From Deltaproteobacteria bacterium (GTDB lineage Bacteria; Myxococcota; B64-G9), in the NCBI GenBank assembly GCA_030622135.1, contig JAUXGL010000004.1, forward strand, positions 1 through 61,880: DNA of 61,880 nt, given 5' to 3'. Numbering within the stretch: the stretch's first letter is position 1; every line of letters starts with the position of its first letter. The translations under genes were made by a program, and so were the position numbers. The notes beneath the pieces were generated by a model that was not told the origin of the DNA, searched no databases, and saw only the letters and a list, made by a program, of their open reading frames with translations. Shown here piece by piece: positions 35,985-56,783 of the stretch.

Positions 35985-36039
35985 TCGCGGGCGAGGCACG
36001 GCGGTGTACTAACCCCTTTGTTCCATTGAGGAATCATCC

Positions 36040-37821
36040 TTGGGAAGTTCTGCACGCATATCTCTCAAAGACAACCCGGGTCAGGAGTGGGAGTTGGGTG
36101 CCGCTCAAATCTTCATAGGGAGCGCGGATAGTAGTGATGTCCGCGTACCCGACGAGTACGTATCTCCCCGTCACAGCCGGATCTATTTCGAGAATGGAAG
36201 CTATGTTATCGAGGGTCTGGGCGATCCTCCCTTGATGGTCAATGGGCGACACGTCACCAAGCAGATTCTCAAAAATGGCGATGAGATTACAGTATCAGAT
36301 TTGAAATACCTTTTCAGTACCCAGGGTTCGTCCGGTTCCGCGCTTAGCCCGAGCACTCCGAGCCAACCGGGTTTTATTGGATCCACTCCCATTGCCGATT
36401 CCGATGCCGGAGAAAAAATTTGCCGGGTGATTTCCAACATCAATCCCGAGGACTACTACGAAGCCGGTGACTATGATTTATTCTTTGGCCGTTCAGAAGA
36501 CTGCGACGTAATCATCCCAGACGAGTACATTTCATCTCGGCAGTCTCGGATATACTCTCACGAGGGGCAATGCGTCATTGAAAACCTGGGTGAAAATCCT
36601 CTTTTGATAAACGGGCGGCCGGTCAAAACTCATGTATTGAGAAACCTGGATGAGATTACCATTTCAGTCAGGAAGTTCACCTTCCACGTTGAAAATCCCG
36701 GGGCCGGCACCGCCGATGCCACTATCATTTCCTCGGCCGAAGACATGTTCTCGGTCTTCGGCGACTCGGATGACGACGAGATCCGCAGACGCAGCCTGGA
36801 GATTGTACGTGCCTTTGAAAAGGCCCACAAAAAGACCAAGCGTCGCTATACCGGCATCATCATTGTCACCGCGATTTTGTTAGTGCTTTCCGGTGGAATT
36901 GCCTTTTACCAACATTCCCAACTGGGTGATCAGCGGGAGATTGCCGAAAACCTGTTCTATCGACTCAAGGAAATGGAGTTGAAGTACGCCAAAAGCGATA
37001 ACCAGGAAAACCTGGCCGAGCGCAAGAAGATGTTGAATGACTACGAAAAACTCCTCAAGCAACAGAAAATCTACAAGAAAATGAGCCGGGAAGACCGGTT
37101 GATCCTCAAGATGGCTCACATGTTTGGGGAATGCGCCATAAACATTCCGCAAGGATTTATCGACGAAGTGCACGAATACATCAATTGGTGGCAAACCGAT
37201 CCCGAAAACAAGCACCGCTTGAAAAACTCCATCACCCGGGCCAAAAAGAAAAAACTGGATCGCTACATCCCTGAAATCATGATGCAGCACGGCCTGCCTC
37301 CGCAGTATTTCTACCTGGCCCTGAACGAGACCAATTTCAACGAGAAAATAGTCGGGCCGAGCACCAGATATGGATTTGCCAAGGGCATGTGGCAGTTCAT
37401 TCCCGATACCGCCAGGAGGTTTGGCCTCGAAACCGGTCGCCTGGTCGAGGAGCCAAAATACGACCCCGGTGACGATCGCCATGACATACAAAAATCCACC
37501 AACGCCGCCGCCCGGTATATCCGGGACATTTACGAGACCAAAGCCAAGGCCTCCGGACTTTTGGTGATAGCTTCATACAATTGGGGGGAACACCGGGTAA
37601 TTCGTGCCGTCGATAAAATGCCCGACAATCCCCGCGAAAGAAACTTCTGGCGCCTGCTGACCGATTTTGGAAACCAACTCCCGGAAGAAACCCACAACTA
37701 CGTCTTCAGAATCTTCTCGGCCGCGGTCATTGGAGAAGATCCCCAACTCTTCGGCTTTGACTTTGAAAACCCCCTGGCCTGGACCAAAGAGACCGATCAT
37801 ACCGAAGAGGAAGCCGGCTAA
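36040..37821 (+). CDS. Tandem FHA-like domains + TM helix + coiled coil + lytic transglycosylase (SLT/MltD-like)
   Basis: Two FHA-like repeats (IGS..VSPRHSRI; FGR..ISSRQSRI), TM YTGIIIVTAILLVLSGGIAFY, SLT motifs LALNETNF, AKGMWQFIPDTA, ASYNWGE, ETHNYV. Confidence 0.88.
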   Translation: MGSSARISLKDNPGQEWELGAAQIFIGSADSSDVRVPDEYVSPRHSRIYFENGSYVIEGLGDPPLMVNGRHVTKQILKNGDEITVSDLKYLFSTQGSSGSALSPSTPSQPGFIGSTPIADSDAGEKICRVISNINPEDYYEAGDYDLFFGRSEDCDVIIPDEYISSRQSRIYSHEGQCVIENLGENPLLINGRPVKTHVLRNLDEITISVRKFTFHVENPGAGTADATIISSAEDMFSVFGDSDDDEIRRRSLEIVRAFEKAHKKTKRRYTGIIIVTAILLVLSGGIAFYQHSQLGDQREIAENLFYRLKEMELKYAKSDNQENLAERKKMLNDYEKLLKQQKIYKKMSREDRLILKMAHMFGECAINIPQGFIDEVHEYINWWQTDPENKHRLKNSITRAKKKKLDRYIPEIMMQHGLPPQYFYLALNETNFNEKIVGPSTRYGFAKGMWQFIPDTARRFGLETGRLVEEPKYDPGDDRHDIQKSTNAAARYIRDIYETKAKASGLLVIASYNWGEHRVIRAVDKMPDNPRERNFWRLLTDFGNQLPEETHNYVFRIFSAAVIGEDPQLFGFDFENPLAWTKETDHTEEEAG

Positions 37822-37905
37822 TCCGCTTATTTTTTGGGAGAGCGGGAACGACGATCCGGGGCCTTACCAAAAACCAATGCCTGTGCTAACACCCCACTTT
37901 GAAAC

Positions 37906-38631
37906 TCAGAGGTAAGGGTTGTCCCGTGGAGAATGTGCTTTGTTTTTCCTATGAGTTGGTTTGCCTGGTTGTTCTTTCTTCTCTTCAGTAGTTGCCTGAA
38001 TAATTGCCCGGGGACCCAATTTTAGCTCAAGATCCAATGGCTTGATGATGATTTCCTCTTCCTTCCATAGCCATGCCCCGGTCTTCTTGTGAATGATTGG
38101 TATGGGAATCACCTGGGTCATGTCTTTGGGCTTAGACTCGAAATACCCGGCGGTTATGCCCAGGTAGCGGGTATTTTCGGCCCGGTCCAGGGGGATGTTT
38201 TTAATCTCGGAGGGGCCGATTTCCACTCCTGTGTGGTCGGTTACGTCATCTCCTAAGGGATTTTCCTCACATTCCACCAGTTGCGACAGTTTTTCAGGAT
38301 TCTTGGCCCAAGCGTTGAATAGTTTGGTGTTGCCCAGTTGGTAAATGCACAAGACCAGGGTGTGGGCTTCGTTCTCGAACCAGTTCAGCTTGGGGTCGGC
38401 CTTGATACGCAGCTTGATGGCTTTTTCCTGAGCGGGAATCACCGCCTGGCTGCGCTGCTGGGGCGTGGCTGGTTTTTGCACAACGGCGCAGCCCACGGCA
38501 ACCAAGGCGATTATTGCCGGCAACCAGGCCTGGAATGCCCATTTTGCCTGATTATCCAGGGATCTGCCCGCAGAGCATAGGTAATTTCTGATAGGCGTCG
38601 AGTTCACCCATTTTCTTGCCTGGTTTTCCAT
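37906..38631 (-). CDS. tssJ: T6SS outer-membrane lipoprotein TssJ
   Basis: Lipobox VAVGC; ADPKLN...LCIYQL...RYLGITAGYF; next to T6SS core genes. Start position uncertain. Confidence 0.85.
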   Translation of the reverse strand: MENQARKWVNSTPIRNYLCSAGRSLDNQAKWAFQAWLPAIIALVAVGCAVVQKPATPQQRSQAVIPAQEKAIKLRIKADPKLNWFENEAHTLVLCIYQLGNTKLFNAWAKNPEKLSQLVECEENPLGDDVTDHTGVEIGPSEIKNIPLDRAENTRYLGITAGYFESKPKDMTQVIPIPIIHKKTGAWLWKEEEIIIKPLDLELKLGPRAIIQATTEEKKEQPGKPTHRKNKAHSPRDNPYL

Positions 38632-39153: not shown

Positions 39154-40515
39154 GTGAATGCCGACAGGCCGATTTTCTGGCATCAGGGTCTGTTTTTGCA
39201 ACCCCAACATTTACAGCTCAACGACCGGTACCAGAGCTCGCTGGTCACCTCCCTGATCCGCTACGCCGGGACCCATTTGTTTGGAGTAGCCGACCTCCAG
39301 ATACAGGCGTCGAGCCTGGCCAATCAGCAGTTCGAGATACTTAAAGGAGAGTTCATCTTTCCCGACGGTACCCCGGCGGTTTTCCCGGGCAATACGGTCA
39401 TCAAGCCGCGATCCTTCGATGGAGCCTGGCAAGAGGCCGGCAAACCGTTTCCGGTTTACCTGGGGCTGCGCAAATGGAGCGCCAACGGCGAAAACGTTAC
39501 CGTGGTCTCCCAACCGGAAGAAATGGCCCGGGTGAACAGCCGCTTCGCCACCACTGACGATCCCGACGATGTCAACGATCATCACGGCAAGGGGCCCCCG
39601 GCCAAGGTCAAGCGCCTCAACCATGTAGTCAGGTTGTTCTGGGAAACCGAGAGGGACATGATGGACGAATACTCCCTGATTCCCATCGCCCAACTGGAGC
39701 GCGACGGGGGGGAGATCCGGCTGTCGAGACACTTTGTTCCGCCCAGCCTGACCATGGCCGCCTCGGAAAAACTGCTCAAAACCTTAAAGGACATCCGCGA
39801 TCAAGTCTCCTCGCGTAGCCGCCAGCTCGAGCAATACAAGAGCACCAAGGAAGTGCACTCATTGTTATTGGCGCTGTATGCGCTCAACCGGAACGTCCCG
39901 GTCCTGAACCAGCTCAACGAGACCAAGGATGTTCACCCCTGGGTGGTTTACGGGACACTCCGGCAGCTGGTGGGTGAGCTGTCCACGTTTGTATCCGGCC
40001 GGAGCGCGACCGGGGAAGGGTCTGATGGCACGTCGGCCCTGCCGCCCTACAACCACCAGAACTGCTGGCCGTGCTTCTCGGCCGCGCATCAGCTCATCGG
40101 CAGGCTGCTCGAGGGCCTGGTGTCCGGGCCCGAGCACCTGATCCGGATGGATTTTGACGGCAACTACTACAACGCCAGCATACCCAAGGATCTGATTGAT
40201 CCGCAGAACGCCTTCTGGCTGGTTCTGCAGACCGAGAGCAACGCCGCCGTGGTCAAGAGCGCCGTCGGCCAGGTGGTCAAGCTGGCCACCTCCCAGACCT
40301 TACCCACTCTGATCGCCCGGGCGCTGCCCGGCATTTCGCTTAGCTACCATCCGGGAACTCCGCCGGGCTTGCCCCAACGCACCAACACCCACTTCTTCCG
40401 CATAGACACCAATAGCCGCTTATGGGCCGGCGTAGAGCAAACCGAGGGTCTGCTCCTGTACTGGGACCGATCGCCAGCCGACCTGGTGGCCGAGATAATC
40501 GTGGCGAAGGAATAA
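39154..40515 (+). CDS. tssK: T6SS baseplate subunit TssK
   Basis: IFWHQGLFLQPQHLQ, PDGT, FVPPSL, ALPGI. Confidence 0.95.
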   Translation: MNADRPIFWHQGLFLQPQHLQLNDRYQSSLVTSLIRYAGTHLFGVADLQIQASSLANQQFEILKGEFIFPDGTPAVFPGNTVIKPRSFDGAWQEAGKPFPVYLGLRKWSANGENVTVVSQPEEMARVNSRFATTDDPDDVNDHHGKGPPAKVKRLNHVVRLFWETERDMMDEYSLIPIAQLERDGGEIRLSRHFVPPSLTMAASEKLLKTLKDIRDQVSSRSRQLEQYKSTKEVHSLLLALYALNRNVPVLNQLNETKDVHPWVVYGTLRQLVGELSTFVSGRSATGEGSDGTSALPPYNHQNCWPCFSAAHQLIGRLLEGLVSGPEHLIRMDFDGNYYNASIPKDLIDPQNAFWLVLQTESNAAVVKSAVGQVVKLATSQTLPTLIARALPGISLSYHPGTPPGLPQRTNTHFFRIDTNSRLWAGVEQTEGLLLYWDRSPADLVAEIIVAKE

Positions 40516-40520
40516 GCCTG

Positions 40521-41810
40521 ATGTCTCTGATCGCTTGTTTCCAGGAAGTCATCGCATACACTTCGTATCTGATCGAGAGCGAGGACCGCTCCGGCCTTTC
40601 CTTCGAGGCGGTCAGAGGCGATCTGGATAAATTATTCGCCGAGGCCGACCAGATCGGTCAGAGCTATCCAGCGGGTACGCCCGGCAGCCAGATACCCGTG
40701 GTTGCCGATCCGCCTCCGGCCGGAGGCGGAAATCTCACGCCGCAGACAGACTCGGCCGCCAGGACGGTATTGAGACCCGCGGTTCAGGTATCGAACCCGG
40801 TATTGATCATAGAGAGTGCCCAGGGGTCTTCCTCCGTGGAGGTCAACCGGGACCCATTCGTGCTGGGCCGAGCTATAGAGTGCAACGCCGTGATCAATGA
40901 CAATCTGGCATCTCGCAGACACTGCCGGATTGATCACAGAAACGACGGCTTATGGTACGTGGTGGATCTCAAATCGGGAAACGGCACAGAGGTCAACAAC
41001 CAGCCCATCGAGCAGCAGGTGCTTAGCGACGGAGACAAGCTGCGGGTGGGTGATACCTTCATTACCTTCAACCTGGCGGTCACCGACCAGCCGGCAGCCC
41101 CCATGCACTCAGCGCATGAACCGGTCACCTCCGCCCCCCCGGCGCCGGCTTTCCCACCCGCTGCAAGACCCCGTACGTCTTCGGTCGCCGGCGAGGTCGG
41201 CGTAGTCACATCCGCCTCCCCGGCGCCGGCTTTCCCACCCGCTGCAAGACCTCGTACGTCTTCGGCCGCCGGCGAGGACGGCGTAAGTGCCACCGACTAC
41301 GAAAACGCCAAGTTTGCCGTGTGTGCCTGGGTGGATGAAGCCATCCTGACCTCCTCCTGGGAAGGTCGAATGGAATGGCTCAAACAGCCTTTGCAGCGAC
41401 GTTTTTTCAATACCACCAACGCCGGCGAGGAGTTCGTCGAGCGCTTGCGGAAACTCGGGCCTGAGAAAAAATCGGTACGGGAAATCTACTCCCTGTGCCT
41501 GGCCATGGGATTCACCGGACCCTTCTACCAGGACGACACCGCTGCCTTGGAAGAGCTCAAGCAGCATAATTACCAGCACTTGTGGGGCGGCAAACCCGGC
41601 GATCAGGAACTTATGGGAAAGTCCCTTTTCCCGGCAGCCTACCCAACCAGCATGCCGCTGAAAAAGGGAAGCCAGAAGAAGTGGAAGTGGCAACCCCTGG
41701 TAAGCCTGGGCCTGATTTTCGGTACGCCGTTGCTGGTGCTGATCCTGTACTGGATCTATAGCGGCATTCTTGACGGCATGGTTCAAGGCATTCTGGAGTC
41801 AGCCCAGTAG
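40521..41810 (+). CDS. tssL: T6SS TssL/DotU with an internally inserted FHA domain
   Basis: DotU motifs AKFAVCAWVDEAIL, LQRRFFNTTNAGEEF, EIYSLCLAMGFTG, C-terminal TM; FHA (LGR..ASRRHCRI..DLKSGNGTEVN) at about 40800-41075. Confidence 0.9.
   Translation: MSLIACFQEVIAYTSYLIESEDRSGLSFEAVRGDLDKLFAEADQIGQSYPAGTPGSQIPVVADPPPAGGGNLTPQTDSAARTVLRPAVQVSNPVLIIESAQGSSSVEVNRDPFVLGRAIECNAVINDNLASRRHCRIDHRNDGLWYVVDLKSGNGTEVNNQPIEQQVLSDGDKLRVGDTFITFNLAVTDQPAAPMHSAHEPVTSAPPAPAFPPAARPRTSSVAGEVGVVTSASPAPAFPPAARPRTSSAAGEDGVSATDYENAKFAVCAWVDEAILTSSWEGRMEWLKQPLQRRFFNTTNAGEEFVERLRKLGPEKKSVREIYSLCLAMGFTGPFYQDDTAALEELKQHNYQHLWGGKPGDQELMGKSLFPAAYPTSMPLKKGSQKKWKWQPLVSLGLIFGTPLLVLILYWIYSGILDGMVQGILESAQ
41124..41285 (+). 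repeat. 81-bp in-frame tandem duplication in the TssL linker
   Basis: VTSAPPAPAFPPAARPRTSSVAGEVGV / VTSASPAPAFPPAARPRTSSAAGEDGV. Confidence 0.93.
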
Positions 41811-41838
41811 AGCAGCGAAAGGTCACCGAGGGACACGG

Positions 41839-44800
41839 ATGAGGAGATACGTCAAGCCGGCATTGATCCTGACCGCCATCGTACTTGTCATTCTGGTCAT
41901 TTGCATCATGGCGAGAACCTGGGGCGAGTGGCAGTGGATCTCGGTGGCGATCCTCGGCGTGGGAATGTCCGCTTTGGCCCTGGGGATCTTCTTTCTGAAG
42001 AAATGGCTTTTTCGGCGCAGTGACAAGAAGTTCGTCGGCGGCATCATGGACGAAGAGGAGGATGCCGCCAAACATGTGGTTGCCGCGGACCAGCAGGCCA
42101 TAGGCGATCTGCAGAAGCGCTGGAAAGACGCCATGGAGGCGCTCAGGCGCGCCCACATGAAAAAGAAGGGACAGGCCTACCAGGTGCAGCCCTGGTTTAT
42201 GATCATGGGCGAGCCGGGTTCGGGGAAGACCGCGGCCATCAAGGGCTCGCGGCTGCATTCTGCACTGACCGACGTGAGCCCGTCCTCGGCAACCTCGGGA
42301 ACCGGCAACTGTGACTGGTGGTTCTTCGAGAAATCCCTGATTTTGGACACGGCGGGACGTTACACCGTTTGGGCCGATGAAGATCAGGACAAGCCGGAGT
42401 GGCGCGAGTTCGTGATGCTTCTGGCCAAGTATCGCAAGAGAAAACCCATCAACGGCCTGATTGTCACCGTGGCGGCCGACAAGCTGGTGAATGCCGAGCC
42501 CGACGCCCTGGCCGATTACGGCCGCACCATCCGCCGCCGCATCAACGAGTTGATGCGTGCCTTTGGAACCCGGTTTCCGGTATATGTGCTGGTTACCAAG
42601 ATCGATCAGATGTTCGGGGTGATGGCCTTATGCGATCAGCTTCCCGAGGAGGCCCTGGGTTCAGCCATGGGCCGCGCCAACTCGGCCTTGAGAGCGGACG
42701 CGGTCGGTGTGCTGGAAAGGACTTTCGTCGAGATCCCTGATCGCATCCGGGGCCTGGAAGTGCTGCTTCTGCACCGCGGAGAAGAGCCCGACCCCGGAAT
42801 CTTGCTTCTGCCCGAAGAGTTTGCCAAGCTCAAGCCCGGCCTGGGACGTTTCGTGGAGGCGATTTTCCAAAAGAGCGGGTACCACGAAGATCCCATCCTG
42901 AGAGGGATCTACTTCTCCAGTGCCAGGCAGGAGACCTCCGATGTCAAGCTGCCGGCATCCCTGAGTGCTTTCCAGTCGAGCCAGAAGGAGCGTCCGGGCG
43001 GCTTCAGGGGGCTGTTTCTGAGGGATTTCTTCTCCAAAATTCTGCCGGGTGACAAGGAGCTGTTGGCCCCCCTGATGGAGGCGGTGGCCACCCAGCGCAA
43101 AATCAAGACCATCGGTGTGGCTGCATGGATAGCCATCATGATCTTCATCGCGGGATTGCTGACCATTTCGTTCTTCAAGAACCTGGGTATCATTGATTCT
43201 TTCAAGCACGATCTGGAGTTTCCCTCACTGGAAGCCGGCGGGGAAGTTGACGCCCAGGAGGCCAAACAGGAAGAAAACGCCGACCGCATGGCTAAATTCC
43301 AGGCCAAGCTCACCAAGTTGCATAAGGAGACCGAGAAAGGCATTCCCATTGATATGGGCCTGGATGCCAGCGAAAGGCTGACCGAGGCGGCCAAGAAGGC
43401 TTTCTGTCAGTTACTGCGTAAGCACTTCCTGGACGAACTGGATAAGAGAATCACCGACAATATCAAAAACCTGTCGGTGGAAGCCTCTAAAGAATTCATA
43501 GGCAAATACGCCGAGCATCTGCAAACCCGGGTTGGCCTGCTGAAGACCAGGCTGAGCAAAGACCAGGACGGGGACCAACTGCTGAAGGAATTGAAAAGCG
43601 CCTCTGAAAGCATCTTCAAAGACCTGAGGGCCATCGACGTAAGGCTTATCCCGGATATGGTCTCCGAGCACATGTTTGCCCTCTACCAGGGTTACCTGCT
43701 GTGGGATCAGAACCGCGAGATGCTGGAGCAAGAAAAAACAGACCTGACCGGAAATCTGATAACCTTGGCGGTCAAGGGCGAGAATCTCAACTGGTTGGTC
43801 GGCTGGGCCAACCTGCTGCCGGACATCAAAAAAATCACCATGGCCCAGTTCTGGGGACGCGAAACAGAGGCAGCGGAATATAACTACGTTCCCAGGGCCT
43901 ATACCCGCGAGGGGCAAAAGAAAATTTTCGGGTTCATTGATCGCACCCTGGAACTGCTGGTGGACGATGACATCAACCACGGCAAGCTGCTTGGCCGCAA
44001 GAATAAATTCCAGAACTGGTATCAAAGCCAATACCTGAAGGCCTGGCGCAGGTTCTGTAAGAATTTCATACTGGATTCCCGGCAGCTTGAGGAATCCGAA
44101 CGCATCCAGTTGGCCCAGGACATGGGAGATCCTAAGAAGAATCCTTACTTCAGGTTGCTAGACAGCATGGCAGACCACCTGTCGGACTTGCCCCATAAGG
44201 ACGAAGCACAAAAGTGGGTCAAGTGGGCGACTGAATTCCCACGTAATCGGAAATTGGCTGAGGGTGTTTTGATGGCCAACAAAGAGGGGAGTACGGCAGA
44301 CGACGAGAAACCGAATCAACGCCGCTTTTCAGATAAAGCGATAACAGCCAAAATGCCACAGAAGCTGGCAGCCTATGTGAAATGGCTGAAAGAAGTCGGC
44401 AAGAAGGTCAAGTCGGACAAGGACACTTACAAGATGTTCTCCAAGCTCTATCAACGCGAGCGGTCGAACCCCCTATTTGAATCCTATACCGCATACAAGA
44501 AGATCGAACGCCTTTATAACCAGTCTCGAGAAAGAAACCCCTACCTGGCGTTGCTGGCCGGGCCCGTGGCTTACCAGCTCAACTACGCGGGGGCAGTGAC
44601 CCGTGACAGGATCCAGGAGCAATGGAGAGAAAAGGTGTTGTCCCGGGCAGACGGCTTGAGCGGGCCGGATCTCAAGGATGCACTGTTCGGAGAGGGCGGA
44701 GTGGTCCGGAAATTCGTCAAGGAGAGCCCGGGTAGTACCTTCATTGAATATCAGGCCACCAGCGGCAGATACGTGCCCAAGAGGGCCCTGGGCAACCGCT

Positions 44801-45330
44801 TTCCCTTCAGTCAGAAGTTCCTGGAATTTGTGAACAAGGGATTCAGACTGACCTCCGGGAAGGTCAAGGACGAGTACAAGATCAAGGTTAGGTTCAAGCC
44901 CACCGGTGCTGAAGGGGGAAAGATCTCTAAGACCGTGCTAACTCTGCAGTGCGGTGATATGGAATTGCAGAAGCTAGAGAACCGGAATTTTGGCAAACCC
45001 CCGCAGTCGTTCACGTGGAAGCCGGGGACCTGTGGAGATGTGAGGCTGGAGATGTTTTTCAAGAAGGGATTCAGGGTCTCCAGGGTTTACAAGGGGGCCT
45101 ATGGGTTCCGCGATTTCATGAAGGATTTTCGCACGGGAGCGCGGGTGTTCGTTGGTGAAAGATTTTCTCGAGAAGACCGGGAGAAACTCAAAAGACATGG
45201 CGTTCGCAGCATCACGGTCAAGTACAAATTCTCCGGCCAGGACGCCAAGGCCGTTGGTAAGTTGAGTTCGATTACGTTGCCACGAACACCTCGGGCTATA
45301 ATCCAGAAACCCACCCGGCTTTTCAAGTGA
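41839..45330 (+). CDS. tssM: T6SS membrane subunit TssM/IcmF
   Basis: N-terminal TMs, PWFMIMGEPGSGKT, CDWWFF, LDTAGRY, PINGLIV, FPVYVLVTKID, LRGIYFSSA. Confidence 0.93.
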   Translation: MRRYVKPALILTAIVLVILVICIMARTWGEWQWISVAILGVGMSALALGIFFLKKWLFRRSDKKFVGGIMDEEEDAAKHVVAADQQAIGDLQKRWKDAMEALRRAHMKKKGQAYQVQPWFMIMGEPGSGKTAAIKGSRLHSALTDVSPSSATSGTGNCDWWFFEKSLILDTAGRYTVWADEDQDKPEWREFVMLLAKYRKRKPINGLIVTVAADKLVNAEPDALADYGRTIRRRINELMRAFGTRFPVYVLVTKIDQMFGVMALCDQLPEEALGSAMGRANSALRADAVGVLERTFVEIPDRIRGLEVLLLHRGEEPDPGILLLPEEFAKLKPGLGRFVEAIFQKSGYHEDPILRGIYFSSARQETSDVKLPASLSAFQSSQKERPGGFRGLFLRDFFSKILPGDKELLAPLMEAVATQRKIKTIGVAAWIAIMIFIAGLLTISFFKNLGIIDSFKHDLEFPSLEAGGEVDAQEAKQEENADRMAKFQAKLTKLHKETEKGIPIDMGLDASERLTEAAKKAFCQLLRKHFLDELDKRITDNIKNLSVEASKEFIGKYAEHLQTRVGLLKTRLSKDQDGDQLLKELKSASESIFKDLRAIDVRLIPDMVSEHMFALYQGYLLWDQNREMLEQEKTDLTGNLITLAVKGENLNWLVGWANLLPDIKKITMAQFWGRETEAAEYNYVPRAYTREGQKKIFGFIDRTLELLVDDDINHGKLLGRKNKFQNWYQSQYLKAWRRFCKNFILDSRQLEESERIQLAQDMGDPKKNPYFRLLDSMADHLSDLPHKDEAQKWVKWATEFPRNRKLAEGVLMANKEGSTADDEKPNQRRFSDKAITAKMPQKLAAYVKWLKEVGKKVKSDKDTYKMFSKLYQRERSNPLFESYTAYKKIERLYNQSRERNPYLALLAGPVAYQLNYAGAVTRDRIQEQWREKVLSRADGLSGPDLKDALFGEGGVVRKFVKESPGSTFIEYQATSGRYVPKRALGNRFPFSQKFLEFVNKGFRLTSGKVKDEYKIKVRFKPTGAEGGKISKTVLTLQCGDMELQKLENRNFGKPPQSFTWKPGTCGDVRLEMFFKKGFRVSRVYKGAYGFRDFMKDFRTGARVFVGERFSREDREKLKRHGVRSITVKYKFSGQDAKAVGKLSSITLPRTPRAIIQKPTRLFK

Positions 45331-45376
45331 AGAGCGGCGCCGGGGTGTGAGTGCAAAGGGAGGGAAACCCGATAGC

Positions 45377-46936
45377 ATGGATTTGCAACAACTAGGAAAA
45401 CAGCCGATCAGCCCGGAGAATCCCGCGGGTATCGACACGTCCGACGAACTGGCGGAGTTCGACAACCTGGAAGATGAGATCCGAAAACTCTCGGTACCGT
45501 CGGTTGCCGGCGGAGGCGTCGACTGGGACCGGGTGGTCGAATTCTCAGAATTCATCCTGGCCGAGAAATTCAAGAGCCTCCGGGTTGCCGTCTACCTGGC
45601 CGTGGCCCTGGCGAGAACCCGCGGTCTGGAGGGACTATCCTCCGGACTGATGATTCTAAAGGATCTTACGGACAATTTCTGGGACAGCTTTTACCCGTCC
45701 AAGCCGCGGGGGCGCCGCGGTGCCCTGGAGTGGTGGTTCGAACGCACCGAGTCCTTCCTGGCGGCCGGTTCCGAGACTCCGGTTCCCGAGGAGTTGGTAA
45801 ACACCACCCTCGGTCAACTGGAAGAGCTCGGACGGCTTCTGTCGGAAAAGATTGAGGACGCCCCGGACATTTCCCGCCTGGGCAGTTATCTGAGAAGTTG
45901 GCCTACCCAGGCCGCCGCAGTGGCTGACCCGGCTCCCGCGCAAACACCGGCGCCTCCAGCTCCGGATACGCCAAAACCTCCGGCCGCCCCGTTATCCACC
46001 GGTGATATCGATACGCCCCAGGATGCCGAGCGAGCGCTGGAGACCAACCTGCGTCAGCTGGTTTTGGTGTCCGATCAACTCTTGCGCCAGGATCCGTCCA
46101 ACCCTCTGGCCTATCATTTAATCCGTATCGGCTCCTGGCTTACCGTAGGCCTGCCCCCTCCGACCACCAGCGGTAACCAGACAGCCCTGCCGCCGCCGGA
46201 TGCCATGGTTCGCAGTGGGATCGAGAGATTGCTGACCGGCCACGACTATGAGGCGGCGATCGGTCAGGCCGAGGAGCGAGTGGGCGAGTTTCTGTTCTGG
46301 CTGGATCTGAGCCGCTTTACCTTCCAGGCCCTAGAGCAGTTGGGGGGCAGGTATCAGATGGCCATGGAAGCGGTAGCCGGTCAGACCGTCCTTTACTTCG
46401 GCCGGCTGTCTGGCTTGGAAAACCTGGCTTTTTCCGACGGTACCCCCTTCGCCGACCCGGAAACCCGGGCCTGGCTGAATTCCATCACCGCTCAGGAAGC
46501 CGCTGCCTCCCCGATTTTGGCCGCCAACGGTGACGGCTCGGGCATCGAGGCCGAAGTGGCCGAGGTGTTTCTTGAAGCCCAGGGGCTGATAAAGGACAAG
46601 CAGCTTTCCGAGGCCGTGATGCTGCTGCACCATCACCTGGCTAGGGGCGGCTCGGGTCAGGAGCGTTTCACCTGGCGCATCGCCCTGGCCCAACTCCTGC
46701 TCGGTGCCGGTCAGATTGATCTGGCCCGTCCGCACCTGGAGCAACTGCTTAGCCAGGTTGAGGAGTACCAACTGGAGCAGTGGGATCCCAGGCTGGCCCT
46801 CCAGGCCCTGATGCTGGTCCATCAGGGGTTGTCCGGAGACGCCCGGCCCGAGGCCCAGGAGAAGGGAGCCGGGGCTTTCGACCGGATAGTCCAGATCAAC
46901 CCGGCGGCCGCCTTGCAAATCAAGAGCAAATCATGA
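45377..46936 (+). CDS. tssA: T6SS TssA (ImpA N-terminal + VasJ-like)
   Basis: PISPENPAG, VDWDRV, KSLRVAVYL, FWLDL, FSDGTPFAD, LEQWDP. Confidence 0.92.
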   Translation: MDLQQLGKQPISPENPAGIDTSDELAEFDNLEDEIRKLSVPSVAGGGVDWDRVVEFSEFILAEKFKSLRVAVYLAVALARTRGLEGLSSGLMILKDLTDNFWDSFYPSKPRGRRGALEWWFERTESFLAAGSETPVPEELVNTTLGQLEELGRLLSEKIEDAPDISRLGSYLRSWPTQAAAVADPAPAQTPAPPAPDTPKPPAAPLSTGDIDTPQDAERALETNLRQLVLVSDQLLRQDPSNPLAYHLIRIGSWLTVGLPPPTTSGNQTALPPPDAMVRSGIERLLTGHDYEAAIGQAEERVGEFLFWLDLSRFTFQALEQLGGRYQMAMEAVAGQTVLYFGRLSGLENLAFSDGTPFADPETRAWLNSITAQEAAASPILAANGDGSGIEAEVAEVFLEAQGLIKDKQLSEAVMLLHHHLARGGSGQERFTWRIALAQLLLGAGQIDLARPHLEQLLSQVEEYQLEQWDPRLALQALMLVHQGLSGDARPEAQEKGAGAFDRIVQINPAAALQIKSKS

Positions 46937-47005
46937 AAACTTCGGGAATAGCGATCCGCGGGAAAAAAAGTAGTTTGGAAAACATCACCATATAAGGAGT
47001 GGTCC

Positions 47006-47497
47006 ATGGCAAAAGAACTCTCAGTGGCACCTAAGGAACGTGTCAATATCGTCTACCGGCCGGCAACCGGTGATGCCCAGGAAGAAGTGGAGCTTCCGTT
47101 CAGGCTTCTAGTCCTGGGAGATTTCAACCAGAAAGAGGACGACCGCGAGGTGGAAGATCGCGATCCCATCAACGTGGATCCCAACAACTTCAACGATGTC
47201 CTCAAAGAGCAGAAGATCGCGCTGGATATCACCGTGCCCAACAAGCTCTCCGAGGTGGAGGGCGAAGAGATGGCGGTGAAGCTGAACATCAACCACATCA
47301 AGGATTTCGAACCGGATCGGATTATCAAGAAGGTACCCGAACTAGCCAAGCTGCTGGAGTTGCGCGAGGCGCTCAAGGCTCTCAAGGCACCGCTGGGCAA
47401 CGTGCCGGCATTCAGGAAGAAACTCCAGTCGCTGATTTCCGACCAAGGGGCCCGTGAGCGGCTGCTCAAGGAACTGGGCATTGACGAAGAGAAATGA
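47006..47497 (+). CDS. tssB: T6SS sheath small subunit TssB
   Basis: SVAPKERVNIVY, ELPF..LVLGDF, VPELAKLLELREAL. Confidence 0.96.
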   Translation: MAKELSVAPKERVNIVYRPATGDAQEEVELPFRLLVLGDFNQKEDDREVEDRDPINVDPNNFNDVLKEQKIALDITVPNKLSEVEGEEMAVKLNINHIKDFEPDRIIKKVPELAKLLELREALKALKAPLGNVPAFRKKLQSLISDQGARERLLKELGIDEEK

Positions 47498-47508
47498 GGA
47501 GGCGAATC

Positions 47509-48990
47509 ATGGCCGATGTAGAAAAAGAAAAGACACAAGCAGCAGAAGAGGCGGTCGAAGATGGCTCGTCACTTCTGGATCAGATAGTTGAAGCTACCAA
47601 GATCAAACCCAAGGACGAGGAATATTCACTTACCCGGGTGGGAGTCCAGGCCTTCATCGACGAGATGCTCAAGCCGGGCCGCGAAGGCCAGAAGATCAGC
47701 GGGGCCATCGTGGACGAGATGATCGCCAATATCGATCATAAGATGAGCTCCCAGGTCAGCGCCATCCTGCATACCAAGGATTTCCAGAAGCTGGAGTCCT
47801 CCTGGCTGTCGCTCAAGTATCTGGTGGAGAACACCAACTTCAAGGAGAACATCAAGATCTCCGTGGTGAACGTGAGCAAGGACGATCTTCTGGACGATTT
47901 CAAGGACAAGATGGACGTAGTCAAGTCCGGGCTGTACAAGACCGCCTATACCGCCGAATATGGCACTCACGGCGGTGAGCCTTACGGCGGCATCATTGCC
48001 AACTACGACTTCGGCCCTGGGGCCCAGGACATGAAGCTGCTGGGTTACGTGGCCAGCGTGGCCGCCATGGCCCATGCGCCGTTCATTGCCGCGGCCAATG
48101 AGGAGTTCTTCAAGATCGACTCTTTCTCCGAGCTTGCCGGAATGAAGGACATCAAGTCCACGCTTGAGCGCCATGCCAAGTGGCAGGGATTTCGGGAGTC
48201 CGAAGACTCGCGTTACGTGGGCCTAACCCTGCCCCGGTTTCTGCTGCGCCTGCCTTACTCGCCGGACACCGTACCGGCCAAGAGCTTCACCTTCAAGGAA
48301 GAGGTGGGCCCGGGCGATGACGATTTTTGTTGGGGTAACACGGCGTTCACCTTTGCCAGCCGCATGACCGCCAGCTTCGCCAGTTACCGGCTGTGCGCCA
48401 ATATCATCGGACCCCGCGGCGGTGGCACCGTGGAAGACATGCCGGTCTATGAGTATGAGGCCATGGGAGCCGTCCAGGCCAAGATCCCCACCCAGGTGGA
48501 GGTTTCCGATCGTATGGAATTCATCCTGGCCGAGGAAGGTTTCATGGCCTTGACCATGCGCAAGGGCAAGGACAACGCCACCTTCTTCTCGGCCAACTCG
48601 GTCCAGAGACCCAAGACCTTCGGAAACACCAAGGAGGGTAAGGAAGCCGAGACCAACTTCAAGCTGGGCACCCAGTTCCCCTACATGATGGTAGTCAACC
48701 GTCTGGCGCACTATCTCAAGGTCATCCAGCGCGAGAACCTGGGTAGCTGGAAGGGCCGGGGAGAGTTGGAGGACGAGCTTAACAAGTGGATCTCCCAGTA
48801 CATCTCTGATATGGGCAATCCATCCCAGGCGGTGCGCAGCCGCAGACCACTGCGCAAGGCCCAGATTGACGTGACCGATGTGGAAGGTGATCCGGGCTGG
48901 TATCGGGTATCCATGAAGGTCGTGCCCCACTTCAAGTTCATGGGCGCGTCTTTTACCTTGTCTTTGGTTGGTAAACTGGACAAGCAGTAA
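47509..48990 (+). CDS. tssC: T6SS sheath large subunit TssC
   Basis: FQKLESSW, EYGTHGGEPYG, PRFLLRLPY, RLAHYLKVIQRE, PHFK. Confidence 0.96.
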   Translation: MADVEKEKTQAAEEAVEDGSSLLDQIVEATKIKPKDEEYSLTRVGVQAFIDEMLKPGREGQKISGAIVDEMIANIDHKMSSQVSAILHTKDFQKLESSWLSLKYLVENTNFKENIKISVVNVSKDDLLDDFKDKMDVVKSGLYKTAYTAEYGTHGGEPYGGIIANYDFGPGAQDMKLLGYVASVAAMAHAPFIAAANEEFFKIDSFSELAGMKDIKSTLERHAKWQGFRESEDSRYVGLTLPRFLLRLPYSPDTVPAKSFTFKEEVGPGDDDFCWGNTAFTFASRMTASFASYRLCANIIGPRGGGTVEDMPVYEYEAMGAVQAKIPTQVEVSDRMEFILAEEGFMALTMRKGKDNATFFSANSVQRPKTFGNTKEGKEAETNFKLGTQFPYMMVVNRLAHYLKVIQRENLGSWKGRGELEDELNKWISQYISDMGNPSQAVRSRRPLRKAQIDVTDVEGDPGWYRVSMKVVPHFKFMGASFTLSLVGKLDKQ

Positions 48991-49024
48991 CTTTGACGAT
49001 CACTTGCGGAAAGGGGAGAAAATC

Positions 49025-49516
49025 ATGGCAATGACGAGTTATCTGAAATTAGAAGGCATTGAACAGGGATCCATCGAGGGAGATTGCGCCCAGAAGGCCA
49101 ACCTGAACTGGATCCTGGTCTACGGCACCGAGTCAAAGATCGGCATACCCACCGATCCTCTGACCGGCTTGCCTACCGGTCAGCGGGTACACGGCCCGTT
49201 CAAGATCATAAAGCGGATGGATCCAGCCACTCCCCAGCTCTACCAGGCCTGCGCCACCGGAGAGCACATGAAGTCCTGGGAGCTGGTTTACAAGAGGATC
49301 AACGATAAGGGCATGGAGGAAGTCTTCTTCACCATCAAGCTGGAGAACTCCATCGTGGTTTCCATGAAGCACTACAAGCCCCTGGCCTTCCTGGAGGAGA
49401 ACAAACCCTACCACGACATGGAAGAGGTCTCGTTCACCTACTCGCGGATCACCTGGACCCACAATATTGCCAGCCGGGAAGCAGTGGATGACTGGAAGGA
49501 GCCCAAGGGCGGCTGA
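49025..49516 (+). CDS. hcp: T6SS tube protein Hcp (TssD)
   Basis: YLKLEGIEQGSIEG, PTGQRVHGP, EEVSFTY..ITWTH, DDW. Confidence 0.96.
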   Translation: MAMTSYLKLEGIEQGSIEGDCAQKANLNWILVYGTESKIGIPTDPLTGLPTGQRVHGPFKIIKRMDPATPQLYQACATGEHMKSWELVYKRINDKGMEEVFFTIKLENSIVVSMKHYKPLAFLEENKPYHDMEEVSFTYSRITWTHNIASREAVDDWKEPKGG

Positions 49517-49558
49517 CGAGTATCGGTTACATGCAGGTGAATCCGACTGGAGACGCGC

Positions 49559-49978
49559 ATGCCCAAAGAGCGTCTGCTAGAAAGAATTCGGCGGATCGAG
49601 GCGAATCCCAACTATCGAGGGTTGACCAACTCTGCTCAGGTGGTGGAATCCATCCTGCGTCACCTTCAGAAGGTGCTGAACACGCGCCAGGGTAATGCCC
49701 TGATTGGCGATGACTACGGAATGCCGGACTTCACCGACCTGGTAATGGCCTTTTCCTCGGGGGCGGTGAAGGATCTGGCTCGATCCATCTCCCGGGTTAT
49801 CCAGAAGTTCGAACCCCGCCTGAGCGGAATCAAAGTCAGAGTCGATCCGCGGCAAAGCGACTCCTTCGAGCTGCACTTCAGGATTGCGGGCAAGCTGACC
49901 ATGGAAGACAACGTGTATGTTCCGGTCACCTTTGCCACAGTGGTGGACCCAGACGGCAGGATTACAGTGAGTCAGTAG
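49559..49978 (+). CDS. tssE: T6SS baseplate TssE (gp25-like)
   Basis: HLQKVLNTRQG, DYGMPD, FEPRL. Confidence 0.95.
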   Translation: MPKERLLERIRRIEANPNYRGLTNSAQVVESILRHLQKVLNTRQGNALIGDDYGMPDFTDLVMAFSSGAVKDLARSISRVIQKFEPRLSGIKVRVDPRQSDSFELHFRIAGKLTMEDNVYVPVTFATVVDPDGRITVSQ

Positions 49979-49996
49979 CTGGAGGACCAGGGAGCC

Positions 49997-51730
49997 ATGG
50001 TTGAACGATATTACCAGAAGGAGCTGGTGCACCTGAGGGAGCTCGCCGTGGAGTTCGCCAGGGCTCATCCGGCCCTGGCTCCCATGCTGTCCGGACCCAC
50101 CCAGGACCCGGACGTTGAGCGCCTTTTGGAAGGCACGGCCTTCCTGACCGGTATGTTGCGGGAAAAGCTGGACGACGAGTTCCCCGAGGTCATCCATGGG
50201 CTGATCCAGTTGACTTTCCCCCATTACCTCAGACCCCTGCCCGCAACCACCCTGATAAAATTCGCTCCCCTGCCGGGGCTCAGGGAATCTCTGAACATCC
50301 CGGCGGGAACCGAGTTGGCCTCGGTCGCGGTGGAGGGCACCCAGTGCATTTTCAGAACTTGCTATGACGTGGAGGTCTCCCCGCTGCGGATCACCGAGGC
50401 GGTTTTCAAGCAACAGCCGGGCCAGCCTGCCCGCCTGCACCTGGGTTTCGAATTGGCCGGCCTGACGCTGGCCGAGTGGCAGAAAAAGAGCGTCCGGCTG
50501 TACATAGCCGGCACCTATCCCGAGGCCGCCACCATTCGCAGCCTTTTTTTCAAGCATGTGCAGAGAGCCCGGATCTGGGCATCCCCGGGCGGGTCGTCCA
50601 CTGAATTACCCGCCGACTTCCAGAAGCCAGTGGGACTCGGCACTTCGGAAGGCCTGTTTCCCTATCCGGGACACGCCTATCCCGGATACCGGCTGCTTCA
50701 AGAGTATTTCCTGCTGCCGGAGAAGTTCTTGTTTGTCGACATAACCGGCTTAGACAGCTGGCAAGACCGGGGGGCGGGCAACCAGTTCTCCATGGAATTC
50801 CAGTTCGGCAAACTGCCCGCGGTTCTGCCGGCCATAAAGAGAGAAAACTTCGTGTTGTTTGCATCTCCGGCGACCAATCTGTTCTCGCACGATGCCGATC
50901 CTGTCAACCTCGACCATAAGCAAACCGAGTACCGCATCACTCCCGGCGGAGACGATCCTTCTCACTACCAGGTGTACTCGGTAGAGAGGGTCACCGGGTT
51001 GGCTCCCGGAACCGCCCGCCGCAGGGAATACACTCCCTTCGAACTCTTTACCGCCGACGAGAAGGGCATGGGTCACTACACAATCAATCGCCGATTGTCT
51101 CAAGTGCGTCCGGAGGCCGAGACCTTCCTTTCGGTGGTTTATCCTCCCCGGGCCGGTCCCCCGACCATGGAGACTCTGTCGATAGAGCTGCTGTGTACCA
51201 ACGCGTCTCTGCCCGAAAGCCTCAAGCTGGGTGACATCTGCCGACCCACTGCAACTTCGCCGGACCTGTGCGAGTTCAAAAACATACGGGCCCCCACCTT
51301 GCCACAGCAGCCGCCCCTGGATCGGAACCTCTTGTGGCGATTCCTGTCTCATCTGTCCTTGAATATGTTGTCGCTGGCGAACCGCGACAATCTCAAGCAG
51401 TTGCTCAGGCTCTACATCTTTCCAGAAGGTCGGGACCGAACCACCATCGTAGCCAACCAGAGACGGATCGAAGGTATTACCGGTGTGGAGGTGAGGACGG
51501 TCAAACGCCTGGTGTCAGGGTTGCCCATGCAGGGTCAAGAGATCCTGATGGAGGTGGACTCAAGCCATTTCGCGGGCACCGGCGATCTTTACCTTTTTGG
51601 AACCATACTGGACATGTTCCTGGGAGCATACGCCAGCATCAACAGCTTTTCCCATTTCAAGATGAAAGATTCGGTTACAGGAGAGATCACCACATGGCCG
51701 GTGCGGATAGGAGATCGCCCGCTGATTTGA
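49997..51730 (+). CDS. tssF: T6SS baseplate TssF
   Basis: YYQKEL, DPDVERLLEG, GYRLLQEYF, LWRFLSHLSLN, YASINSF. Confidence 0.96.
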   Translation: MVERYYQKELVHLRELAVEFARAHPALAPMLSGPTQDPDVERLLEGTAFLTGMLREKLDDEFPEVIHGLIQLTFPHYLRPLPATTLIKFAPLPGLRESLNIPAGTELASVAVEGTQCIFRTCYDVEVSPLRITEAVFKQQPGQPARLHLGFELAGLTLAEWQKKSVRLYIAGTYPEAATIRSLFFKHVQRARIWASPGGSSTELPADFQKPVGLGTSEGLFPYPGHAYPGYRLLQEYFLLPEKFLFVDITGLDSWQDRGAGNQFSMEFQFGKLPAVLPAIKRENFVLFASPATNLFSHDADPVNLDHKQTEYRITPGGDDPSHYQVYSVERVTGLAPGTARRREYTPFELFTADEKGMGHYTINRRLSQVRPEAETFLSVVYPPRAGPPTMETLSIELLCTNASLPESLKLGDICRPTATSPDLCEFKNIRAPTLPQQPPLDRNLLWRFLSHLSLNMLSLANRDNLKQLLRLYIFPEGRDRTTIVANQRRIEGITGVEVRTVKRLVSGLPMQGQEILMEVDSSHFAGTGDLYLFGTILDMFLGAYASINSFSHFKMKDSVTGEITTWPVRIGDRPLI

Positions 51731-52707
51731 ACGGCGATCTTTTCGAGAATCCTTCTAGTTACTCCTTCTATCAGGTGGTCAGGCTCTTGCGCTTGCGCGC
51801 CAATCAAGACCGGCCAATCGCCAGCGACAAGTTTCTCAGGGAACAGCTGCGGGCAAGGCCTCATCTGTCTCTGGGGTTCCCGGGGACCGACGTGGTGGAT
51901 GTAGTGGAGAGTTCAATTGACCAGGTGAGGCGCTTCCTGGTCTCGGTGTCTTTTCTGGGCCTCTACGGAGTCTCCTCGCCGCTGCCCACCCATTACACCG
52001 AGGACCTGATCCGGGAAGAGATGGATGACCAGGTGGTGGCCCGGGACTTTCTGGACATTCTGAGCGGGCCCATTTATCGTCTGCTGTTTCAAACCTGGAG
52101 CAAGTATCGCTGGGCCTTGCGGGTATCCGAGGAAGAGGATCAGGATTGCCTCGAGCGGCTTTTCTGCCTGGTGGGGCTGGGATCGGAATCGCTCCGCCGG
52201 AGCGTTCCCCGGCCCCGGAGATTGCTGCGTTACTTGGGGCTGTTTTCTCAGTCTCCCCGCTCGGCTCTGGGGCTTCGAACCTTGCTATCCGACGCTTTAG
52301 AGGTGCCCAGCCTGGAAATCACTCCTTGCCTGAAGCATTGGGTGGAGATTCCCGCGGACCAACGCTGTCGCCTGGGTGGGCAAGGAGCCAGTCTGGGAGA
52401 AGATTGCTACCTGGGTGCCCAAATAGAAGACCGCATGGGCAAGATACGTATTACCGCCGGGCCCCTGGAAGAAGACAAATTCTATGGATTGCTCCCGGGC
52501 GCTCCATTGAATCAGGAGTTTGGATCATTGATGAATGCCTACCTGAACCAGCCCATGGATTGCGAGCTCAAGCTCATCCTGAATCCCGAGGCGATTCACA
52601 CCGTGATACTGGGCCAGCCCAAGGGCTCGGGCCTGGGCAAGGACAGTTGGGTTTTCTCGGGGCCGAGGTTCGAGGGGGAGGTAGCCATTACGTTTCAATG
52701 TCAATAA
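51694..52707 (+). CDS. tssG: T6SS baseplate TssG
   Basis: YSFYQVVRLL, SFLGLYGVSSPLPTHYTEDL; canonical overlap with the tssF end. Confidence 0.94.
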   Translation: MAGADRRSPADLNGDLFENPSSYSFYQVVRLLRLRANQDRPIASDKFLREQLRARPHLSLGFPGTDVVDVVESSIDQVRRFLVSVSFLGLYGVSSPLPTHYTEDLIREEMDDQVVARDFLDILSGPIYRLLFQTWSKYRWALRVSEEEDQDCLERLFCLVGLGSESLRRSVPRPRRLLRYLGLFSQSPRSALGLRTLLSDALEVPSLEITPCLKHWVEIPADQRCRLGGQGASLGEDCYLGAQIEDRMGKIRITAGPLEEDKFYGLLPGAPLNQEFGSLMNAYLNQPMDCELKLILNPEAIHTVILGQPKGSGLGKDSWVFSGPRFEGEVAITFQCQ

Positions 52708-52782
52708 AGGCGCTCCTGGGCGCAATATCGAGATACTTGTATTGATCCTGGAATTCGGATCTTACCAACAGAGGAGTGAGTC

Positions 52783-56219: not shown

Positions 56220-56303
56220 GTCACCCGGCGATCAAGTTTCTTTGTGATTCTGCCTTCAGGAAAATCCCTCCCGGTCGGGTGGAAATGCTGACTGCTTTCA
56301 CCT

Positions 56304-56783
56304 CTAGGCCGGTGGACTCTTTTTGGAGTCGATGAGCAGCACGGCGTTGTTTTCATGGATGCTAATTCCGTGCACGCAGTCAAATGGGTGTTTCTCCACG
56401 TAGCGGGCCGCCTGGATGTCGGGGGGGGTCTGCAGATCCAGGGTCACCCGGTAGACAGTAGGTTGCTGGAGATCGGGGCGTGCCTCCAGGCTCAGGTAGC
56501 GGATCATCTCGTGTGCCTCTCGAACCATTCTGGCCGCGTACCGGCGGGTCGGATCATTGGGGTCGGGGGAAGGCTCCCGGGCCGCAGGAACGGATTCAGG
56601 TTCTATATCGGCTGGCCGGGGGGATGAGCCATCGGTCGGCCGGGCCTGAATGGGCTTGTTCTGTAAATCCGCCTCGAGTTCCGCGATACGCCTCTTGGCC
56701 TGGGCCACGCGTCGCCGGAATACAAGCGCGACGCTGCTTGTCACCAGGAGCATGACCAGAGCTGCGATTAACGCAAAATCCAT
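56304..56783 (-). CDS. Hypothetical single-TM protein
   Basis: GGAGG RBS; N-terminal TM, coiled coil, Pro-rich linker. Confidence 0.72.
   Translation of the reverse strand: MDFALIAALVMLLVTSSVALVFRRRVAQAKRRIAELEADLQNKPIQARPTDGSSPRPADIEPESVPAAREPSPDPNDPTRRYAARMVREAHEMIRYLSLEARPDLQQPTVYRVTLDLQTPPDIQAARYVEKHPFDCVHGISIHENNAVLLIDSKKSPPA

Follow-up and report, generated by a model that had tools for sequence, protein, structure and literature searches.

The membrane complex of a type VI secretion system (T6SS) must cross the peptidoglycan, and its passage through the wall is known for two model systems only: enteroaggregative Escherichia coli (EAEC), which borrows the lytic transglycosylase (LT) MltE, and Acinetobacter, which uses the endopeptidase TagX. 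The recruitment of MltE (EmtA) by the Sci-1 T6SS of EAEC was reportedly described by Santin and Cascales in 2017. According to excerpts of a 2026 review on T6SS accessory genes (PMC13584744), both enzymes are examples of the local peptidoglycan remodelling needed by T6SS membrane complexes. MltE is a family-1 LT that is recruited and activated at the TssJLM membrane complex to let it through the wall (PMC13584744, PMC10781749; excerpts of both) and that is not encoded in T6SS loci, while TagX is encoded in the T6SS locus of Acinetobacter, Burkholderia and others and is needed for T6SS localisation and activity (PMC13584744, same excerpts). The same source states that the physical role of the FHA protein in the T6SS threonine-phosphorylation pathway is still unclear. 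Here we analysed a stretch of 61,880 nucleotides (hereafter the window; contig JAUXGL010000004.1 of assembly GCA_030622135.1, Deltaproteobacteria bacterium, Myxococcota), in which a gene for a 593-amino-acid protein borders a T6SS-i cluster that is complete and has all 13 core T6SS genes (Pfam). The protein consists of two FHA domains, one transmembrane (TM) helix, a helical hairpin and an MltD-type LT domain (Table 1), and we are moderately confident that it is a T6SS-dedicated wall-opening enzyme docked via pseudo-FHA domains, combining a TagH-like with an MltE/TagX-like function in one polypeptide.

The open reading frame (ORF) begins with TTG, preceded by AGGA approximately 8 nt upstream, and the full-length homologs have the same start in the alignment. 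Pfam profiles matched FHA (6.2e-25, two stretches), the overlapping Yop-YscD_cpl (3.1e-18) and SLT (1.5e-13, residues 416-529), and none of the following NCBIfam models reached its curated cut-off: MltD proper (PRK10783 equivalog, 59.7 vs. 508 bits), TagH (TIGR03354, 51.3 vs. 120.25 bits) and FhaB (66.3 vs. 125 bits). Hydropathy gave a single peak at residues 269-291, with seven Lys/Arg in the 15 residues before it and two after it, a bias that places the N-terminus inside; with the helix oriented in this way, the FHA domains lie in the cytoplasm and the SLT domain in the periplasm. The AlphaFold2 (AF2) model, built on 114 homologs and with a mean predicted local distance difference test score (pLDDT) of 87.8, contains beta-sandwiches at residues 5-94 and 128-218, a helix that runs unbroken through the membrane (245-316), a return helix (322-341) and a helical/SLT domain up to residue 571, with disordered linkers at 98-122 (pLDDT < 50) and 224-235. 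The juxtamembrane helix is conserved, with R256 and A258 at 90% or above. A fold search with this model returned no ring-building domain among its matches, residues 292-354 being barely covered by the search, and a promoter/terminator scan of positions 35500-39300 gave no more sites than shuffled sequence. The initial annotation, made from the letters alone, had already recognised two cytoplasmic FHA-like repeats, one TM helix and an SLT domain with its catalytic Glu and motifs, in agreement with Pfam, hydropathy, charge bias, the AF2 model and the residue invariance given below; the coiled coil it listed between the TM helix and the SLT domain appears in the AF2 model as a helical hairpin.

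Within the LT domain, the catalytic E430 (codon 37327-37329) was invariant in 114/114 aligned homologs, as were G449, W451, Q452 and the Phe of W-Q-F in the AKGMWQF stretch (447-453) and Y513 and N514 in SYNWGE (512-517). These positions correspond to E-S, G-x-x-Q and A/S-Y-N-x-G, which we take to be the motifs of family-1 LTs; the residue following the catalytic Glu is Thr in the window protein and Ser in 113 of the 114 homologs. VIA-align superimposed residues 355-578 of the model on Pseudomonas aeruginosa MltD (8rhi_A) with a Z score of 18.4 and a root-mean-square deviation of 2.7 (184 aligned residues, 28% identity), the match to MltD was also returned by Foldseek (E 1e-7), and the top PDB sequence match was 8rhe (7.4e-14). 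The invariance of the Glu and of the LT motifs argues for retained catalysis, and we infer from these residues that the domain is catalytically competent and would act as an LT.

Residues 1-96 of the model fitted classical FHA domains (EmbR/GarA; VIA-align, Z ~17), and FHA1 and FHA2 share 45% identity across an ungapped stretch of 88 residues (E 4e-28), which points to an internal duplication. The initial annotation had called both copies degenerate, and the alignments bear this out: FHA1 has GS for GR and lacks the Asn of the NG turn, FHA2 reads S-S-R-Q at the SxxH site, and the NG(T) turn is absent from FHA1 and FHA2 alike. The one-FHA relatives, in contrast, nearly all carry the phosphothreonine (pThr)-binding signature, with GR in 109/110, the Ser and His of SxxH in 110/110 (with the Arg between them in 109/110) and D.S.NG in 110/110. 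In the four two-FHA proteins the Arg (R151) was kept in a single one, and Gln for His, Gly for the loop Ser and Pro for the Gly of NG were found in 4/4. P117 of the linker, which follows T116 in the window protein, is invariant in these four proteins. The FHA pair of the window protein is probably a docking module of pseudo-FHA type that works independently of pThr.

A search against a set of 5.8 billion proteins gave 205 matches at E ≤ 1e-3 among 8000 scored candidates, and among the 120 matches listed only three were full-length two-FHA proteins besides the query (P0002-P0004; 46-49% identity, 97-98% coverage), the others having approximately 460-520 residues, one FHA domain and about 40% identity over about 73% of the query. 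In one-per-species genomes, relatives are encoded in at least 580 stretches, to which a metagenome scan added 283; the genome stretches belong to Myxococcota, Thermodesulfobacteriota, Aminicenantes, Ignavibacteriota/Bacteroidota, Nitrospirota, Acidobacteriota, KSB1, and Gemmatimonadota. The genomic context was compared in 80 genome loci and 80 metagenome loci, which are those most similar to the query and not a random sample. A quick IQ-TREE phylogeny (73 rows; 10 of the 80 genome loci were left out, six without a motif-bearing ORF and four shorter than 430 aa) clustered the window protein with those of loci L001 and L002 (SH-like approximate likelihood ratio test, SH-aLRT, 100) outside all one-FHA proteins and on a long branch of its own. 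The G086 and G094 loci, which had no motif-bearing open frame in a six-frame scan, are absent from this tree. Four loci in which tblastn matches reached the N-terminus of the query (L125, L121, L173, L174) were considered as further two-FHA candidates and rejected, as no second FHA domain was found in them when compared with FHA1 and FHA2 of the window (E < 1e-3). The genome of the window encodes a paralog of 528 aa with one canonical FHA domain (G000:C136:26815-28356; L087:14774-16357), which groups in the tree with a copy from a genome without TssC (SH-aLRT 99), separate from the two-FHA clade.

T6SS genes in the 80 genome loci were marked by tblastn with the T6SS proteins of the window, by clusters of neighbouring ORFs together with Pfam, and by a whole-genome search for TssC (PF05943); tblastn matches to TssL that overlapped the target gene were discarded as FHA cross-matches. 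The two-FHA form was linked to T6SS in 4/4 loci with context (window, L001, L002, L100), its neighbours being tssJ in the window, clpV and a homolog of the 261-aa ORF of the window (with tssG/F/C/B) in L001 and L002, and vgrG in L100. For the family as a whole, a T6SS marker of any kind was present in 33/80 genome loci and, where the contig extends for 10 kb to either side of the gene, in 22/31, while the independent metagenome set gave 28/80 and, with full flanks, 8/11; the tie to T6SS loci supposed in the initial annotation thus holds for most loci with full flanks. TssC lay within 40 kb of the gene on the same contig in 22/80 loci, with a recurrent spacing of 15-23 kb in the Ignavibacteria/Bacteroidota-type ones, and was found in 61/80 carrier genomes. 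In L048 the order is tssJ-K-L-M-tagF-[FHA-TM-SLT], and in an Ignavibacteriaceae locus (L098 + L015) the co-directional series tssL-tssM-tagF-tssA-B-C-hcp-tssE-hcp-tssF-G-clpV-vgrG-PAAR is followed in the same direction by genes for a DcrB-like protein, DUF3558, FHA-TM-SLT, PP2C-TPR, and a kinase, with FHA-TM-SLT as the sole FHA protein of the locus. The same downstream PP2C module was seen in 11 further loci on contigs cut short upstream.

Co-occurrence was followed in two taxonomic groups. In the order of G015 (101 genomes), the gene was found in five genomes and TssC in six, with TssC in 5/5 carriers and neither in 95, figures to be read with G015 having been picked as a carrier of the gene and with related genomes not being independent; the distance between the gene and TssC was 15-19 kb in three carriers of this order that were new to the analysis. 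In the phylum of the window (61 genomes), seven genomes carried the gene, all from the family of the window, nine had TssC, and four had both.

Many relatives are accompanied by genes of threonine phosphorylation. A Hanks-type (Ser/Thr) kinase was encoded within 6 kb in 37/80 genome loci and in 24/80 metagenome loci (34/56 and 18/32, respectively, if the downstream sequence has to be 4 kb or longer), mostly directly downstream and on the same strand, and PP2C within 3 kb in 28/80 and 21/80 loci, respectively. In T6SS loci the family thereby holds the TagH/Fha1 position beside TagF, PppA-like, and PpkA-like genes, and overall it looks like a phospho-regulated LT built into the T6SS locus by many lineages. 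The window, L001, and L002 do not show this pairing; no PP2C was found on the window contig, nor any of the 46 Hanks kinases of the genome. Since the wider family consists of kinase/phosphatase-coupled LTs with canonical FHA domains, the window protein can be seen as a derived, probably phospho-independent offshoot.

Of the described proteins, P. aeruginosa MltD (PDB 8rhe/8rhf/8rhi; a family 1D LT) shares the fold and motifs of the catalytic domain. MltD is an outer-membrane lipoprotein with LysM domains, whereas the window protein has no LysM match (Pfam) and carries an inner-membrane TM anchor and cytoplasmic FHA domains. The succession of a cytoplasmic N-terminal FHA domain (or a pair) and a TM helix is found in YscD/PrgH/MxiG of type III secretion systems (T3SS) and in EssC of type VII secretion systems (T7SS). 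The Yop-YscD_cpl profile, which overlaps the general FHA profile, scored 66.3 bits on the window protein against a cut-off of 33.2, and Foldseek also listed, lower down, 5fwh, the tandem FHA of EssC (rank 43, 235 columns), and 4d9v, an FHA from a T3SS. The FHA domains of T3SS YscD-type proteins and of T7SS EssC act without phosphothreonine; the outer parts of these proteins are ring-building or ATPase domains and not a wall-cutting enzyme. TagH/Fha1 of the PpkA-PppA-TagF pathway, too, has an FHA domain and a gene in the T6SS locus. It is a soluble cytoplasmic protein, whereas the FHA domains of the window protein are joined to a TM helix and an LT domain, duplicated, and degenerate, with no kinase or PP2C on the contig and a score below the TagH cut-off; the one-FHA relatives resemble TagH/Fha1 in their canonical pThr-binding residues and in the adjoining TagF, PP2C, and Hanks kinase. 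MltE is, like the window protein, a family-1 LT, with the role in the passage of T6SS through the wall that we propose for the window protein, and differs in being a housekeeping outer-membrane lipoprotein, encoded outside T6SS loci according to the review excerpts, without FHA and without a TM anchor. TagX, as portrayed in the review excerpts, shares the location in the T6SS locus and a periplasm-facing, peptidoglycan-cleaving domain, and is set apart by that description as an endopeptidase rather than a glycan-cutting LT and by its lack of FHA domains. In the full-text literature searched (a scope outside which subscription journals and supplements lie), neither an FHA-TM-SLT protein nor an LT encoded in a T6SS locus was found described; a locus-encoded LT is not listed in the excerpts of the 2026 review (PMC13584744), and neither protein occurs in the excerpts of the Bacteroidota membrane-complex paper (PMC10781749) and of a 2012 comparative-genomics paper. 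FHA and wall-opening functions are both known for T6SS; what appears undescribed is that the two are fused, that the fusion occurs across so many phyla, and that there is a pseudo-FHA duplicate.

Read as a dedicated wall-opening enzyme, the window protein would be a bitopic inner-membrane protein and an accessory part of the adjacent T6SS, with its two tandem degenerate FHA domains facing the cytoplasm and with the TM helix and a short helical stalk putting an active MltD-type LT in the periplasm. The pseudo-FHA pair would dock, probably without phosphothreonine, on some component of the T6SS under assembly that lies in the cytoplasm or the inner membrane (candidates are the FHA-bearing TssL, TssM, and TssK), and this docking could confine the cutting of glycan strands to the point at which TssJ-L-M has to pass through the wall. 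The LT activity, the wall-opening role and the docking are proposed because of the analogy to MltE and TagX and to the phospho-independent FHA domains of YscD-type proteins and EssC. The two-FHA protein would have descended from the widespread one-FHA, kinase/phosphatase-coupled FHA-TM-LT proteins, which in the T6SS loci of many phyla occupy, beside TagF, PP2C, and a Hanks kinase, the place that TagH/Fha1 has elsewhere.

Several observations weigh against this reading, and some of them feed the view that the protein is a housekeeping envelope LT, serving growth, division or another machine, with the adjacency to tssJ being incidental or stemming from a mobile low-GC insertion. The one-FHA paralog of the same genome sits among ftsH, greA, recG, and eno, a Bryobacteraceae-type clade has ruvX, yceG/mltG, and tdk as neighbours and no T6SS genes in its vicinity, and three related genomes (93-95% complete), all from one genus, have a one-FHA copy and no TssC. 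Five TssC-positive relatives lack the gene, so that it is not needed by every T6SS; TssC was not found in 19/80 carrier genomes, many of which are incomplete metagenome-assembled genomes, and no T6SS marker was seen in 9/31 genome and 3/11 metagenome loci with full flanks (one of these three is on the contig that also gave L042). Some loci unlinked to T6SS likewise show the kinase pairing (L008, L032, L037, L052, L062), so that the family may at its core be tied to the kinase and not to T6SS. Finally, the gene lies with tssJ and the ECF sigma/anti-sigma pair in a block of lower GC content (about 0.50 vs. 0.60). The family is therefore not exclusively T6SS-bound, as the unlinked loci, the carriers without TssC and the housekeeping paralog show, and the dedicated enzyme proposed in the initial annotation is partly supported, the linkage of the two-FHA form to T6SS being upheld. 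For the window protein itself we nevertheless regard a housekeeping role as quite improbable, as the two-FHA form is linked to T6SS in all four loci with context despite rearranged gene orders, and as the genome already has a housekeeping-type copy from which the two-FHA clade stands apart in the tree.

It is also conceivable, and in our view unlikely, though less so than a housekeeping role, that the protein is a regulator or anchor of the T6SS, i.e., a membrane-bound equivalent of TagH/Fha1 whose LT domain binds or senses peptidoglycan while the FHA side nucleates or licenses assembly, cleavage being secondary. Such a role would suit the one-FHA relatives, which have tagF, PP2C and a Hanks kinase as neighbours and share their T6SS locus with no other FHA protein; it would also suit the absence of an OmpA-like domain from the window TssL and of any TagL-like gene among those seen in the cluster (Pfam), as well as the short stalk, which keeps the LT domain close to the inner membrane in the AF2 model. 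It is harder to reconcile with a catalytic Glu and LT motifs that are invariant in 114/114 homologs, and signalling is made less likely for the window protein by the loss of pThr-binding residues in its clade together with the lack of a kinase or phosphatase in cis. A secreted antibacterial effector that attacks the peptidoglycan of prey, which the LT domain and the position of the Ignavibacteria-type gene downstream of a vgrG/PAAR cargo region might suggest, is extremely improbable: the protein is integral to the membrane, with its N-terminus inside and its FHA domains in the cytoplasm, PAAR, Rhs and MIX modules are all missing from it, no small immunity-like neighbour is conserved across the loci, and the family is also present without T6SS. 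We rejected this possibility on topology.

More tentatively, the wall-opening enzyme may be part of a wider scheme, which we consider rather doubtful as a whole, in which FHA-TM-LT proteins read a threonine-phosphorylation signal (PpkA-like kinase, PppA-like PP2C, TagF) and cut the peptidoglycan directly above, the window clade having become a duplicated, phosphorylation-free and constitutive core-like subunit. Within this scheme the canonical FHA domain of TssL could possibly hold the window protein by binding a phospho-site in its inter-FHA linker (TP at 116-117). If it were true, FHA-TM-LT proteins would supply a missing link for how the T6SS is built in bacteria other than the model Proteobacteria, with the signal that marks the firing site also opening the wall there. 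A family that fuses FHA and LT suggests a direct mechanical link from a cytoplasmic assembly signal to local wall opening, and its members occur in T6SS loci from Myxococcota, Thermodesulfobacteriota, Ignavibacteriota/Bacteroidota, Nitrospirota, and Acidobacteriota; in addition, the genome of the window offers a natural contrast between a T6SS-linked pseudo-FHA copy and a housekeeping copy with a canonical FHA domain.

Table 1. Features of the FHA-FHA-TM-LT gene and its surroundings (positions in the window; aa, amino acids)
Feature	Position	Strand	Basis
FHA-FHA-TM-LT gene, 593 aa	36040..37821	+	ORF, Pfam, AF2
FHA1, aa 1-96, cytoplasmic, degenerate	36040..36327	+	Pfam, VIA, alignment
Ser/Thr/Pro-rich disordered linker, aa 97-126	36328..36417	+	pLDDT, sequence
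FHA2, aa 127-218, cytoplasmic	36418..36693	+	Pfam, FHA1-FHA2 comparison, alignment
Basic juxtamembrane helix, aa 245-270, and TM helix, aa 271-291 (36850-36912)	36772..36912	+	Hydropathy, charge, AF2
Periplasmic helical hairpin/stalk, aa 292-354, family-specific	36913..37101	+	AF2 helices; outside MltD-aligned range 355-578
MltD-type LT domain, aa 355-578	37102..37773	+	VIA, Foldseek, PDB profile match, residue invariance
tssJ lipoprotein, convergent neighbour	37906..38631	-	Pfam T6SS-SciN 2.9e-15; NCBIfam TssJ 49.3 bits vs. cut-off 31.6
tssK	39154..40515	+	Pfam T6SS_VasE 8.9e-100
tssL with N-terminal FHA fusion	40422..41810	+	Pfam DotU 8.4e-33, FHA 1.9e-17
tssM, tssA, tssB, tssC, hcp, tssE, tssF, tssG, clpV, 261-aa ORF, vgrG	41770..59241	+	Pfam
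Intervening ORF inside T6SS cluster	56304-56783	-	Pfam survey of cluster
Putative anti-sigma, upstream and divergent	33393-34991		ORF survey
Extracytoplasmic function (ECF) sigma factor, upstream and divergent	34973-35584		ORF survey

The FHA-FHA-TM-LT gene and tssJ are convergent and TssL bears an FHA domain, both as noted in the initial annotation; 84 bp separate the stops of the two genes. The FHA domain of TssL is canonical (GR, SRRH, NGT), and no OmpA-like peptidoglycan-binding domain was found in this protein with Pfam; as its ORF overlaps tssK by 94 nt, the true tssL start may lie further downstream. In the linker of TssL, a Pro/Ala-rich unit of ~25 aa that ends in RPRTSS occurs as two tandem copies, and in the related genome G088 the DotU and FHA ORFs are separate and in reversed order. 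The block of lower GC content extends over 33200-39200 (~0.46-0.53 vs. ~0.58-0.62 in the flanks) and comprises the anti-sigma, the ECF sigma factor, the FHA-FHA-SLT gene, and tssJ, a module that may have been acquired apart from the rest of the T6SS cluster.

Further observations concern neighbouring genes. The cytoplasmic 261-aa ORF right after clpV (55434-56219 in the window) has no Pfam or NCBIfam match; in L001 and L002 a homolog separates clpV from the FHA-FHA-SLT gene, in L010, L033, L050, and L059 one is found near the FHA-SLT gene, and a protein atlas gave a weak TIR-like lead for it (score 0.88; TIR_2 on 27% of cluster members). Approximately 18 kb upstream of the T6SS cluster, a stand-alone FHA protein of 142 aa (18025-18450, FHA 6e-21) is convergent with a sigma-54 activator with a PocR-like sensory domain (18520-20061). 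Elsewhere in the family, a protein of ~530 aa that weakly matches VipB (2.5e-29) and VipA (2.1e-07) in one chain (L002:8303-9916; TIGR03355, 90 bits vs. a cut-off of 271) recurs directly beside the FHA-TM-SLT gene (L001, L002, L010, L017, L033, L035, L050, L059, L119, L128), on top of a normal tssB and tssC; it was not found in the genome of the window, where PF05943 has a single match. A DcrB-like protein of ~190 aa (PF08786, 5.7e-11; L015:8487-9050) is encoded just upstream of the FHA-TM-SLT gene and on the same strand in 20/80 genome loci, with a median gap of 34 bp and, in L015, with a DUF3558 ORF in between. Lastly, the Ignavibacteriaceae genome G015 has 12 Hanks-type kinase matches on one strand within ~27 kb (G015:C3:208994-235477; open frames of ~700-890 aa) and a second such kinase array on C17.

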